Below, piece by piece: positions 46,490 through 58,680 of a stretch of 64,000 nucleotides of DNA. A model generated the notes under the pieces. The model saw nothing but the letters and a program-made list of their open reading frames with translations, made no database searches and had not been told where the DNA came from. The position numbers and the translations under genes were made by a program. The DNA comes from Candidatus Bipolaricaulota bacterium (lineage in GTDB: Bacteria; Bipolaricaulota; Bipolaricaulia; RBG-16-55-9; DRXL01): the NCBI GenBank assembly GCA_938091745.1, contig CALLJK010000009.1, positions 94,844-158,843 on the forward strand, given 5' to 3'. The number at the start of each line of letters is the position of its first letter. Position 1 is the stretch's first letter.

Positions 46490-46987
46490 GTTTCAACACC
46501 GTGCTGGTTTAGCGAAAAGATCACTGTGTTCGGGCGGAACCCGCCCGCTTTTTTGTTTCAATACCACACTGGTTCAATTAAAAGTCTCCATTGGCCGAGC
46601 GCAAGCGCGGTGATGTCGGCCAGTTTCAATACCACACTGGTTCAATTAAAAGCCAGTGGGGGCGTGGGTGACAGAGACAGCCCTGCACGAGTTTCAATAC
46701 CACACTGGTTCAATTAAAAGTCAGAGATGATCTGTCGCGCCAAGACCAAGGCATCAGTTTCAATACCACACTGGTTCAATTAAAAGGTTGCGTTCACGTC
46801 GCCGCTTGTGGGCGGCATGTTCGGGTTTCAATACCACACTGGTTCAATTAAAAGTCTTGCCTCTGCAATAATTCCGTCTACGATCCACGTGTTTCAATAC
46901 CACACTGGTTCAATTAAAAGTCTATTACAATCGCCATAGCCTACCATCCTAGCGCTTGTTTCAATACCACACTGGTTCAATTAAAAG
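46490..46987 (-). CRISPR. CRISPR array 1: 8 repeats (7 consensus plus 1 degenerate terminal), 30-nt repeat GTTTCAATACCACACTGGTTCAATTAAAAG (+ strand)
   Basis: Repeats at 46490 (degenerate), 46555, 46623, 46691, 46757, 46825, 46891 and 46958. Spacers are 35-38 nt. The degenerate repeat at the left and the leader at 46988-47355 put transcription on the minus strand. Confidence 0.95.
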
Positions 46988-47241
46988 GCAGGCGGGGCGA
47001 CGACTCATGGGCCTCGCGAGCAAGATGAGCAAAACTCGATCAGATCAGCTCTGACCCTAAGCCTCCCCATCCCTCACAAGGCCCACTCCCCCTATGCTTT
47101 GGAACCCCTAATCGTCGTCGCGCCCCAATCCTGCACAAACCCCAGGACCTCGACGACTATGGGGATTTCTCTGGTCCTATCGGGATTATTCACTTGTCAA
47201 AGACCCCCGCTGACCCCGTCGGCCCAGCGCTCCGTGCTCCC

Positions 47242-47271
47242 ATTATACCCCCCTCGACGACAACTCGTCAA
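47242..47271 (-). promoter_or_regulatory. leader promoter of array 1 (TTGACG-N18-TATAAT on the minus strand)
   Basis: The reverse complement reads ttgacgagttgtcgtcgagggggtataat, nearly identical to the array 2 leader promoter ttgactgagcgtcgtcgagggggtataat. About 255 nt upstream of the first repeat. Confidence 0.4.
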
Positions 47272-47290
47272 GAGGGCTTCCCCCACCCCC

Positions 47291-47319
47291 TTGACAAAAC
47301 GACCAAAATCTGCTATAAA
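47291..47319 (+). promoter_or_regulatory. candidate cas operon promoter TTGACA-N17-TATAAA
   Basis: ttgaca 47291-47296, tataaa 47314-47319, about 40 nt upstream of cas6. Confidence 0.45.
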
Positions 47320-47355
47320 CACTTTGATCTCTGTACCCGGCCCGGCTCATAAAGG

Positions 47356-48135
47356 ATGATATCCATGAGAGTGATCATATCTCTGAGGCCGGAACGGGTC
47401 CCCTGCACCATCCCGTTCTCTTATTCCCATGATCTCACTGCCGTCATCTATGGGTTCTTAGCACGCTCCTCTCGCGATTACGCACGCTTCCTCCACGACG
47501 AGGGCTATCGCGCCGGCACAAAGCGCTTCAAGCTCTTCACCTTCTCGCAACTTTTGCTCCCAGAGCGCCGGATTGCCCCGGAGGGCTTGGTCTGCCTCAG
47601 CCCTCAGATCTCCTGGCAGATCGCCTCGCCCATCTCCGAATTCGTTGAGCACCTGGCGACGGGGCTATTACAGCTGGGGCAGATGCGCCTTGGGGCCATA
47701 GCATTTATCGTTGAGCGCGTCGAGGTTGCCCCGCAACCGGTGTTCTCCCACGCTATGCAGATGCGCTGTCTTTCACCGATTGTGGCGTCGAGGGCCGAGG
47801 AGCGGGCGGGGAAGCTGGTGGCGAGATATCTGCGCGCGGACGACCCGTGGCTGTCTGAAGCGCTGCGCCAGAACCTCCTGAGAAAATTTCTCTTGGTGCA
47901 CGGGCGGGAGCCGACTGACAGCGCGCTGGCGGTGGAGTTTGACGGCGAGTATCTGCGGCGCAAGGGGAATGGGGTCTATCGCGTGATAGACTACAAGGGC
48001 ACGAAGATCAAAGCGATCATGGCGCCGTTTACAGTCTTGGGCAGCCCGGAGCTTATAGAGCTGGGCTACGAAGCGGGGTTTGGCGAGAAGAACTCTATGG
48101 GCTTTGGCATGGGGGAGGTGATACAATGCGATTGA
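47356..48135 (+). CDS. cas6: CRISPR endoribonuclease Cas6 (copy a, high GC)
   Basis: MRVIISL.. RAMP N-terminus, KRFKLFTFS, and C-terminal glycine-rich loop GFGEKNSMGFGMGEV. Confidence 0.8.
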   Translation: MISMRVIISLRPERVPCTIPFSYSHDLTAVIYGFLARSSRDYARFLHDEGYRAGTKRFKLFTFSQLLLPERRIAPEGLVCLSPQISWQIASPISEFVEHLATGLLQLGQMRLGAIAFIVERVEVAPQPVFSHAMQMRCLSPIVASRAEERAGKLVARYLRADDPWLSEALRQNLLRKFLLVHGREPTDSALAVEFDGEYLRRKGNGVYRVIDYKGTKIKAIMAPFTVLGSPELIELGYEAGFGEKNSMGFGMGEVIQCD

Positions 48136-48869
48136 CAGTCTCATACTCTCTAGACAATAAATATTTGCCGATAGACTATCGACGTGGCTTCGCATCGCTG
48201 CTCAAGGAATCACTCAAGAAAGCCAGCAACGAACTCTTCACGAGATACTATTCGAAATCTCATGTTCTAAAACCTTTCACTTTCTCTATCTATTTCCCTG
48301 AGCTTATAGGAGAGGAAGAAGGGCGCTTTAAAGTCGGCACTAGGGCTGTCCTTAATTTCTCAACTATATCTTATGAGCTAGGGGCCTACATTTACAACGG
48401 ACTATTAGATCATCGCTCGTTTCGCCTTTTTGAGAACTCAGCGCAGCTTATGCATATTACCCTGCGACCATCAGTTGTTATTCGCCAGGAATCAGCGATA
48501 TTTAAAACCATGGCCCCTATCTTGGTCAACAGCAAAGGGAGTGCTGAATGGTATCTCTTGCCAGGTGATGAAGGGTTTGCCCAAAGCTTAAACTTCTCCG
48601 TCAGAGAGCTCGCCCGTACCTTTTTAGGTAAGGCTGAGGTGCATATTGAGTTTCGGCCTATACGTATTCAGCGGAAGGTAGTGCGGCATTATAATATGAA
48701 CATGCAAGGTTTCGTAGGAGTGTTCGAATTGCGCGGCCACCAAGACGTGTTGAACTTAGTCTATCAAATTGGCTTGGGTGTGCGTCGCAGCCAGGGCTTT
48801 GGCATGCTGGAGCTGGTGCGCCAAGGGCCTTATTTAGAACAGGCTGCTTCAGGGGGGAGGCGCTCATGA
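48126..48869 (+). CDS. cas6: Cas6 paralog (copy b, low GC)
   Basis: MRLTVSYSL.., KPFTFSIYF, and C-terminal G-rich loop GLGVRRSQGFGMLELV. Markedly AT-richer than copy a. Overlaps both neighbouring genes. Confidence 0.75.
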   Translation: MRLTVSYSLDNKYLPIDYRRGFASLLKESLKKASNELFTRYYSKSHVLKPFTFSIYFPELIGEEEGRFKVGTRAVLNFSTISYELGAYIYNGLLDHRSFRLFENSAQLMHITLRPSVVIRQESAIFKTMAPILVNSKGSAEWYLLPGDEGFAQSLNFSVRELARTFLGKAEVHIEFRPIRIQRKVVRHYNMNMQGFVGVFELRGHQDVLNLVYQIGLGVRRSQGFGMLELVRQGPYLEQAASGGRRS

Positions 48870-57521: not shown

Positions 57522-57591
57522 GTGGGAGGTTTGTTATAATTGCAAAGCCTATGAGGCTTAGGATCGACCAAGAGAGAAGGAGGGAGCAGCG

Positions 57592-57798
57592 TTGAAGAGA
57601 GCTTTCAGAGCAACAGTCTGGCAGGAAGGCGACTGGTTTGTGGCACAGTGTCTTGACGTAGATATAGCTAGCCAAGGGAAGACCGAGCAAGAAGCCCTTG
57701 AGAATCTACGAGAAGCTTTAGAGCTGCACTTCGAAGCCCCTCAGGCTACCGTCACTCCTCATGTCGTTACTATAGAGGCGGAGGTCTCTGCTGCTTAA
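57592..57798 (+). CDS. hicB: HicB-family antitoxin (RNase H-like fold, UPF0150-like)
   Basis: 68 aa. ATVWQEGDWFVAQCLDVDIASQGKTEQEALENLREALELHFE matches the HicB N-domain pattern. Confidence 0.65.
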   Translation: MKRAFRATVWQEGDWFVAQCLDVDIASQGKTEQEALENLREALELHFEAPQATVTPHVVTIEAEVSAA

Positions 57799-57917
57799 AC
57801 CACTGTCCTATCGCGAGGTCAAGAGAAAATTGGAATTGGAGATCACCGTAGGTACCTTGCGCAGTATCTTGCGACAGGCAGGCTTGAGCATCGAAGAATT
57901 TATGCATCTATAGGCCT
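57799..57917 (+). pseudogene. hicA toxin remnant (N-terminally truncated, no start codon)
   Basis: The frame translates to ..KPLSYREVKRKLELEITVGTLRSILRQAGLSIEEFMHL*, the conserved HicA C-terminus (GTLRSILKQAGL). The N-terminal catalytic His region is absent. Bounded upstream by an in-frame stop. Confidence 0.45.
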
Positions 57918-58181
57918 ATGTACGTTCTTTTGGTCTACGATGTGGATGTCTCTCGTGTGCCCAAGGTCTGCAAGTTTTTACGAAGATACTTGCATTGGGT
58001 GCAGAATTCCGTGTTTGAGGGGGAGCTGCGCGAATCCCAGCTAGAAGAGGTGCGGTGGGGGCTGAAGCAGCTCATCGATGCTGAGCGGGATTCGATCTAC
58101 ATCTATCGGGTGCGTGACCAGAAGTGGATAGATAAAGAGATTCTGGGGCAGGAGCGCAGCCCGACCGATGCGATCATTTGA
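57918..58181 (+). CDS. cas2: Cas2
   Basis: MYVLLVYDVDVSRVPKVCKFLRRYLHWVQNSVFEGEL, the canonical Cas2. Confidence 0.85.
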   Translation: MYVLLVYDVDVSRVPKVCKFLRRYLHWVQNSVFEGELRESQLEEVRWGLKQLIDAERDSIYIYRVRDQKWIDKEILGQERSPTDAII

Positions 58182-58207
58182 CTGAGCGTCGTCGAGGGGG
58201 GTATAAT
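58178..58207 (+). promoter_or_regulatory. leader promoter of array 2 (TTGACT-N18-TATAAT)
   Basis: ttgactgagcgtcgtcgagggggtataat, about 245 nt upstream of the first repeat. Confidence 0.4.
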
Positions 58208-58450
58208 AAAAACAATAGAGTCGGGTTTTGGGAAGGACGGCGGGGTCATTGACAAGTGGATAGGGTGCTTGGCAACGGGGGAATCTCCCGAGTCGTCGAG
58301 GCTCTGGGTTTTTTGCAGGATTGGGGCTCGACGACGATGGAGGACGTTGGAGGGCCGCGGGGAGGAGAAGGGGAGGTGCAACGGTAGCACTGATCTGATG
58401 AGGTGTTTGCCCTTCTACTCCCCAGGCCCCTGAGTCGTCAAACTCTCTGC

Positions 58451-58680
58451 CTTTTAATTGAACCAGTGTGGTATTGAAACGATACAGAACGAGAGCGATC
58501 CGCTGAAGAAAGAGCTGCTTTTAATTGAACCAGTGTGGTATTGAAACCGACGCGACTCAATGAACTTCACCCCTTCCCTCTGGACTTTTAATTGAACCAG
58601 TGTGGTATTGAAACGTTGAGACTGGATAACTGTCTAACTGGGAACTGTTCCTTTTAATTGAACCAGTGTGGTATTGAAGC
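58451..58680 (+). CRISPR. CRISPR array 2: 4 repeats of CTTTTAATTGAACCAGTGTGGTATTGAAAC (reverse complement of the array 1 repeat), with the last repeat degenerate (..GAAGC)
   Basis: Repeats at 58451, 58518, 58585 and 58651. Spacers are 36-37 nt. The repeat 3' end ATTGAAAC is the typical 8-nt crRNA 5' handle, indicating + strand transcription. Confidence 0.95.

Follow-up and report, generated by a model that had tools for sequence, protein, structure and literature searches.

The 64,000-nucleotide (nt) window analyzed here, a stretch of a contig from Candidatus Bipolaricaulota, carries a chromosomal type I-B CRISPR-Cas locus flanked by two arrays; all coordinates are positions in this window unless another locus is named. 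Very probably, this locus, which is of the Cst/Tneap-like kind and has a separate Cas11b, sits on a frame conserved in its lineage, whose middle part is exchangeable and whose two leaders descend from an ancient duplication. It is an ordinary, complete I-B locus with an old layout common to relatives, and not the outcome of a recent rearrangement. The host was placed in Candidatus Bipolaricaulota by means of UvrC homologues, the UvrC protein of the window being 83% identical to a protein from a metagenome-assembled genome (MAG) of the Bipolaricaulia.

The two arrays share a 30-nt repeat in opposite orientation and bracket the block of cas genes. In array 1, GTTTCAATACCACACTGGTTCAATTAAAAG is present in seven perfect copies on the + strand (46555-46987), and the outermost repeat (46490-46519) is a degenerate copy matching at 22 of 30 positions, which represents the terminal, leader-distal one. 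Array 2 consists of four copies of the reverse complement, CTTTTAATTGAACCAGTGTGGTATTGAAAC, the last of which is mutated and ends in GAAGC. The leader-proximal repeats are perfect in both arrays, and the repeat ends are nearly symmetric (GTTTCAAT...ATTAAAAG). With 8 and 4 repeats and 10 spacers of 35-38 nt in total, this anatomy agrees with a preliminary description of the locus.

Each array is preceded by a leader of about 275 nt, and the two leaders are homologous end to end. Alignment of 46988-47271 (reverse complement) with 58178-58450 yields 194 identical bases among 268 aligned ones, with a score of 75 compared to 2.1 +/- 1.6 and a maximum of 9 for 500 dinucleotide shuffles (z=45), which upholds the homology proposed earlier. 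The identity amounts to 72% over aligned bases and to 61% when gaps are counted. Both leaders contain a near-identical promoter block composed of TTGAC(G/T), with five arbitrary positions after TTGAC, followed by GTCGTCGAGGGGGGTATAAT. A scan for consensus sigma-70 promoters, which requires T as the last -10 position, detected only two 11/12 matches in 13 kb, the two best there, one per leader and each directed into its own array; as consensus matches, these are putative promoters. In leader 2, the stop codon of cas2 and the -35 box of the promoter overlap. Furthermore, a junction motif, GGCCC(A/C)TGAGTCGTC, is located 11 nt from the first repeat in both leaders, where the preliminary description had placed it at about 12 nt. 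A putative promoter of the cas operon, facing cas6 (TTGACA-17 nt-TATAAA), was read from the sequence. It points away from the leader 1 promoter, their -35 boxes being 19 bp apart, and is kept in the left-type leaders of L042, L084, and L088 (L numbers denote related loci). The promoter scan did not list it because TATAAA lacks the final T.

Relatives were collected in two ways. A profile of Cas7 homologues identified 80 I-B loci in species-representative genomes, mostly from thermophiles of many phyla, and a metagenome scan with the 20-nt promoter block retrieved 15 stretches. All of the latter with enough downstream DNA carry the same repeat about 260 nt downstream and in the same orientation. 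The complete frame exists in two relatives, L088 (1-12789) and L084+L091, the adjacent pieces of one 670-kb contig (Ga0079992_131327, 654531-669835). Both show the order array, leader, cas6(a), PIN gene, csm1-csm5, CARF gene, leader, array, and have a type III-A operon, devoid of cas1 and cas2, in the middle. The left flank of these III-A loci reveals 72-79% nucleotide identity to uvrC and the cNMP-binding-domain gene (cNMP gene) of the window, and on the right they share 99% identity with the flank of L092. L092 is organized as cas3-cas4-toxin-cas1-cas2-leader-array-MFS and is 74-77% identical to the right side of the window (77.5% in the MFS flank), and L093 combines the right side known from L092 with a different I-B effector set. 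Between L091 (III-A) and L092 (I-B), the right leaders are 100% identical, and in the III-A loci 34 nt identical to the 3' end of the L092 cas2 gene, a cas2 stub, stand just before the right leader. Since the same frame occupies the uvrC/cNMP-MFS site in these relatives, the two-leader frame is ancestral to the group. The part between the leaders has undergone replacement, which at least once eliminated cas1 and most of cas2; the direction of cassette replacement is what we infer from this comparison.

Two observations on these relatives are added here. Contigs with 99-100% identical right leaders and right flanks (L088, L084+L091, and L092) carry either a III-A csm operon or an I-B plus cas1-cas2 cassette. 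The PIN-domain gene, which encodes 128 aa, follows cas6a directly at the head of the III-A operon (2678-3064 in L088, corresponding to 4975-5361 in L084).

The preliminary description had suggested a duplication or inversion event as the origin of the layout. Taken as a recent event within this genome, this would mean that one leader-array unit gave rise to a copy at the opposite end of the cas operon, or that an inversion occurred. In favor of it, the units have the same repeat, are inverted relative to each other, and possess recognizably homologous leaders. Also, among the related I-B loci from other phyla, 23 could be assessed on both flanks, and none of them is bracketed by two arrays (the array follows cas2 in 14 and precedes cas6 in 3, and 6 have none). 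However, the leaders have retained just 61-72% identity. The two-leader frame is found at the same chromosomal site in L088 and L084+L091, where the identity of left- and right-type leaders is 71%, and its right part recurs there in L092. Moreover, the right-type leaders of the sister lineage adjoin cas2 or the cas2 stub, as in the window. A recent local event is thus very unlikely, and the ancient duplication remains the preferred origin of the two leaders.

The tandem of cas6 genes gives a hint at how the present middle was assembled. Cas6a and Cas6b share 20% identity and are, judged by their sequences, unrelated paralogues with different histories. Cas6a is 69% identical to the Cas6 heading the III-A operons of L084 and L088. 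For Cas6b, the identity to the sole Cas6 of L002, an I-B locus, is 48%, and homologues of it occur in most related I-B loci. The content of guanine and cytosine (GC) is 59% in cas6a, 45-51% from cas6b to cas3, 51-56% from cas4 to cas2, and 55-60% in the flanks. The cas6b-cas3 block looks imported, and the tandem is best understood as the seam where a resident, array-linked Cas6a meets an imported I-B effector cassette with its own Cas6b. The same cas6-cas6 tandem, together with an identical repeat and a homologous leader, is present in L042, a locus of a Bipolaricaulota MAG.

All large open reading frames (ORFs) between the arrays are located on the + strand. Profile matches (Table 1) support the gene order cas6-cas6-cas8-cas11-cas7-cas5-cas3-cas4-cas1-cas2 given earlier, to which a toxin-antitoxin pair and a HicB-like ORF have to be added. 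They predict the type I-B signature protein Cas8b, the I-B effector set Cas7, Cas5, and Cas3 (HD plus helicase), an I-B adaptation module of Cas1b, Cas2, and a separate Cas4, and a small subunit Cas11 encoded by a gene of its own. The assignment to type I-B with a separate cas11 was thereby corroborated by the PADLOC matches for Cas8b and Cas11b. For cas8b, the Pfam model Cas_CXXC_CXXC scores 21.2 bits, just over its cut-off, and the NCBIfam Cst1 model 15.4 bits, under its cut-off of 19.4. The PADLOC Cas11b profile is described as 'small subunit of some I-B systems', and cas11b is a separate ORF in most of about 70 related loci examined, with in-frame fusions to Cas8 in L018, L078, and L081. 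An alignment-based AlphaFold2 model of Cas11b is all-helical with a predicted local distance difference test (pLDDT) score of 87; the single-sequence model is poor (pLDDT 47). A Foldseek comparison of Cas11b with the PDB gave no match with E<1, and sequence and profile searches of the PDB came back empty. The assignment of Cas11b therefore follows from the PADLOC profile, not from structure. No type III genes besides cas6a were found in the window.

From the placement of leaders and repeats, we conclude that the arrays are probably read outward. Both leaders lie between the cas genes and their arrays, and the degenerate repeats are at the outer ends, as they are leader-distal in most related arrays whose end is present. 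There is no space for outer leaders, with the cNMP gene 2 nt from array 1 and an MFS ORF beginning 15 nt beyond array 2. In 14 leaders from other assemblies, the promoter-bearing sequence is on the inner side, and in every case the same repeat, in unchanged orientation, follows about 260 nt downstream. Finally, the presumed sense strand of the repeat ends in ATTGAAAC, which is the usual I-B handle. Most likely, each array is thus read toward its own degenerate terminal repeat, as had been noted; the term 'convergent' used in the preliminary description has to be replaced by divergent, since the leaders are inner and the degenerate repeats outer. Truly convergent arrays, read inward from leaders on the outer sides, would fit an alignment of the Rfam model CRISPR-DR2, which takes GTTTCAAT...AAAAG as the sense strand and thus a strand that begins with GTTT, as many repeats do. 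This match is below threshold (24.5 bits compared to a gathering score of 37, E=0.86) and, apart from a spurious miRNA match, was the only result of an Rfam scan of 45500-59500. With no room for outer leaders, degenerate repeats outermost, promoter-bearing sequence on the inner side in 14 of 14 leaders, and the I-B handle on the opposite strand, inward reading is scarcely credible.

On the basis of outward reading, the following mechanism can be proposed. The frame consists of two outward leader-array units and a resident cas6a beside the left leader, and here and in some relatives also of a cas4-(toxin-antitoxin)-cas1-cas2 module beside the right leader. About 245 nt before the first repeat, each leader would provide a strong sigma-70 promoter of its own, and precursor CRISPR RNA (pre-crRNA) would be transcribed leftward from 47235 and rightward from 58214. 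Cleavage by Cas6 is predicted to leave the usual 8-nt ATTGAAAC handle, with AUUGAAAC as the predicted 5' handle of the crRNA, which would come from the - strand in the case of array 1 and from the + strand in that of array 2. Cas1-Cas2, possibly with Cas4, could in principle insert spacers at either leader-repeat junction, both of which keep the invariant GCC. Both leaders would derive from one ancient duplication that preceded the split from the sister lineage. The middle would be an imported I-B cassette of lower GC content (cas6b-cas3) in this genome; in the sisters, it is another I-B variant or a III-A csm operon.

Several points weigh against this account. The Rfam alignment weakly favors the opposite strand, and strand as well as promoter use were deduced from sequence. 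A complete frame with an I-B middle is represented by the window alone, as the left parts of L092 and L093 lie off their contigs. In a tree, the leaders cluster according to lineage and not to side, with distances of 59-65% that are close to saturation; synteny is the main basis for the age assigned to the duplication. The arrays of the window are short (7 and 3 spacers), and searches for protospacers gave no target. A self-target and phage check had been suggested in the preliminary description: no spacer matches the window or any fetched locus, and nine of the 10 spacers, joined after exclusion of the terminator-like oldest one, have no target in 50,697 INPHARED phage records at E<=1. Likewise, no target was found in IMG/VR for the first 24 nt of four leader-proximal spacers. 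Without a protospacer in the window, in INPHARED, or for the four seeds in IMG/VR, current activity is unproven.

This bears on the earlier claim of two independent acquisition sites, the plausible part of which comes from the relatives. On both sides, related arrays comprise 15-44 repeats, and they have no spacer in common, even where leaders and flanks are identical and even at the trailer end. Long arrays on both sides without shared spacers argue that both leader types acquire spacers in the lineage, and make two acquisition sites, both with putatively active leaders, plausible. In the window, a conserved leader-repeat junction and polarized arrays are found on both sides. Alternatively, only one site might be live, and either array 2, with 3 spacers and a mutated last repeat, or array 1 would be a relic in decay from which transcription continues. 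In size, both arrays fall short of those of the relatives, the spacer searches described above gave no target, a 396-nt insertion separates cas1 from cas2, and the adaptation module holds two toxin-antitoxin elements. Yet none of the blocks conserved across the 14 leaders is missing from either leader, GCC at the first repeat included, their proximal repeats are perfect, and Cas1, Cas2, and Cas4 are full-length with strong profile scores. We consider a single live site unlikely, while granting it a real chance.

Comparison of the 14 related leaders delimits the conserved parts of this leader family. The promoter block is invariant in 13 of them. The first of the invariant or nearly invariant blocks is this promoter with an embedded GTCGTCGAG, followed by GGGTC(T/A)TTGA(A/C)AAGTG, by a second GTCGTCGAGG with an inverted CGACGACG 35 nt further, and by (A/G)(G/A)CCC about 25 nt before the repeat. 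GCC adjoining the first repeat is invariant in all 14 leaders. The junction motif of the preliminary description is present in both window leaders, as stated there; beyond this genome, only a part of it is conserved. In both window leaders, the distance from the promoter copy to the second copy of GTCGTCGAG is 104 bp.

Within the part predicted to be transcribed, both leaders contain a conserved imperfect palindrome (GTCGTCGAG, about 27 nt, C(T/G)CGACGAC) at 58285-58345 and 47104-47164, which was also observed in 13 related loci. It occurs in none of the 80 I-B loci of other lineages, and on this comparison it is specific to this leader family. The consensus fold of the leaders contains a long hairpin holding an invariant 7-bp GUCGUCG/CGACGAC stem and flanking helices, with a covariation term of -0.67 kcal/mol, which is almost none; the minimum free energy (MFE) of leader 2 has a z-score of -2.6. 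On these values, an RNA hairpin and a palindromic protein-binding DNA site cannot be separated. Two linked ideas are put forward together as a speculation with a limited chance of being right. First, the Bipolaricaulota may maintain a 'docking frame' at one site, made of two outward leader-array units and a resident Cas6a, within which effector cassettes (I-B variants and III-A) are swapped within populations. Second, the GTCGTCGAG set, i.e., the copy in the promoter spacer, the copy 104 bp downstream, and the inverted partner 35 bp further, would be a candidate site for a host or Cas factor linking the transcription of the arrays to the integration of spacers. Any role of these conserved motifs would have to be understood in this conditional sense.

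Arrays on both sides of I-B loci are already known from the literature, and the layout is hence less unusual than the preliminary description suggested. In a survey of 47,789 genomes, this was the preferred pattern for I-B loci (PMC12814883). The I-B locus on pHV4 of Haloferax volcanii is flanked by the CRISPR loci P1 and P2, each with its own leader (PMC3945376, PMC6546412), and a review refers to this two-array organization as 'a common theme' (PMC6546412). Our locus resembles that of Haloferax in having an I-B cassette between two arrays with their own promoter-bearing leaders and nearly identical repeats. According to the same review, the cas cassette of Haloferax can be lost when its two flanking arrays recombine (PMC6546412), which implies direct orientation. 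In contrast, the units are inverted here, and recombination would be expected to flip the cassette rather than to delete it. The locus further differs from Haloferax in being bacterial and in having sigma-70 promoters, a separate cas11b, two cas6 genes, and toxin-antitoxin inserts.

With the Cst/Tneap-type I-B loci of thermophilic bacteria (Cst1/Cas8b, Cst2/Cas7, Cas5t; e.g., L002-L081), our locus shares the effector and adaptation families and their order. It differs from them by arrays on both sides (0 of 23), and most of those loci have a single cas6. Paired, oppositely oriented arrays with inner homologous leaders around an adaptation cassette are also a feature of Sulfolobus, where the system is of type I-A with archaeal promoters and different leader motifs. 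The common element is the pair of divergent arrays with homologous leaders and central cas genes. A further parallel exists with the exchange of cas modules in archaea: conserved adaptation modules and arrays are joined to different interference cassettes, Cas6 proteins of types I and III are intermixed, and toxin-antitoxin genes reside inside cas cassettes. Unlike that archaeal work, which was based on dendrograms, exchange is seen here at one fixed bacterial chromosomal site, with the 34-nt cas2 stub as its footprint. Inverted orientation, a fixed chromosomal frame with a swapped middle, and lineage-specific leader motifs are what is specific to our locus.

The locus offers a clean natural case in which one cas cassette has taken the place of another between fixed arrays. 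I-B in one genome and III-A in a near relative are accompanied by the same leaders, repeat, and Cas6a, and the cas2 stub marks the breakpoint. In addition, it provides a conserved bacterial I-B leader with promoter, palindrome, and junction, usable for studying what the I-B integrase needs at the leader, and an I-B system with separately encoded Cas11b from an uncultured phylum.

Table 1. Features of the I-B locus and its two leader-array units, in window order.
Feature	Position	Strand	Description
CRISPR array 1	46490-46987	read on -	8 repeats, 7 spacers; predicted reading direction away from cas genes
Leader 1	46988-47271	-	sigma-70 promoter: -35 TTGACG 47271-47266, -10 TATAAT 47247-47242
Leader 1 junction motif	~47013-46999
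Leader 1 GTCGTCGAG motifs	47261-47253, 47157-47149		inverted partner 47122-47114
Putative cas operon promoter	47291-47319	+	TTGACA-17 nt-TATAAA
cas6a	47356-48135	+	TIGR01877 132 bits; 59% GC
cas6b	48126-48869	+	TIGR01877 110.7 bits; 47% GC
cas8b	48866-49975	+	short form, 369 aa, CXXC motif; PADLOC Cas8b PDLC01204 E=2.3e-127
cas11b	49947-50462	+	separate small-subunit gene, 171 aa; PADLOC Cas11b PDLC01193 E=2.5e-62, full profile
cas7 (Cst2/DevR)	50484-51638	+	TIGR02585 161 bits (cut-off 72.75)
cas5 (Cas5t)	51657-52502	+	TIGR01895 123 bits (cut-off 96.7)
cas3 (HD nuclease and helicase fused)	52447-55209	+	TIGR01587 243 bits, TIGR01596 66.8 bits; both over cut-off
cas4	55279-55803	+	TIGR00372 87 bits; Pfam Cas_Cas4 180 bits
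Toxin-antitoxin pair	55852-56519	+	UPF0175 antitoxin 55852-56070, DUF3368 PIN-like toxin 56067-56519 (Pfam); PADLOC candidate system PDC-S70
cas1 (Cas1b)	56523-57521	+	TIGR03641 463.8 bits (cut-off 304.1)
Insertion between cas1 and cas2	57523-57917	+	~396 nt; HicB-like ORF 57592-57798, HicA C-terminus remnant 57795-57914
cas2	57918-58181	+	TIGR01573 55 bits
Leader 2	58178-58450	+	sigma-70 promoter: -35 TTGACT 58178-58183, -10 TATAAT 58202-58207
Leader 2 GTCGTCGAG motifs	58188-58196, 58292-58300		inverted partner 58327-58335
Leader 2 junction motif	58425-58439
CRISPR array 2	58451-58680	read on +	4 repeats, 3 spacers; predicted reading direction away from cas genes

Two elements interrupt the adaptation module. 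The UPF0175/DUF3368 pair sits between cas4 and cas1, and a toxin gene was observed at the same position in L092 (2448-2903) and L093 (7275-7730). This shared position in the sister loci indicates that the pair is a stable resident of the module. The HicB-like ORF of the second element encodes 68 aa and matches Pfam DUF7387 with 34 bits; the match of the HicA remnant is weak (E=0.0024). L092 is without this insertion, and its cas1 and cas2 genes are 6 nt apart.

At the outer border of array 1, the cNMP-binding-domain gene (46069-46488) stops 2 nt short of the degenerate terminal repeat. The oldest 'spacer' of this array (46520-46554) is a GC-rich hairpin followed by a T-run, and reads as the intrinsic terminator of the cNMP gene on the + strand. 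In L084 and L088, a terminator hairpin likewise adjoins the terminal repeat.

In L093, an ORF of 140 aa with an IscB/Cas9-type HNH region lies between cas3 and cas4 (6100-6522; NCBIfam guided_IscB E=2e-11, partial match). Many close Cas7 homologues (e.g., in loci L049, L055, and L060) have a length of 460-540 aa and align to the query in two halves; about 46-50% of the query is covered by the best segment, at 70-85% identity. This suggests a large insertion or an added domain in the Cas7 proteins of an I-B sub-clade.

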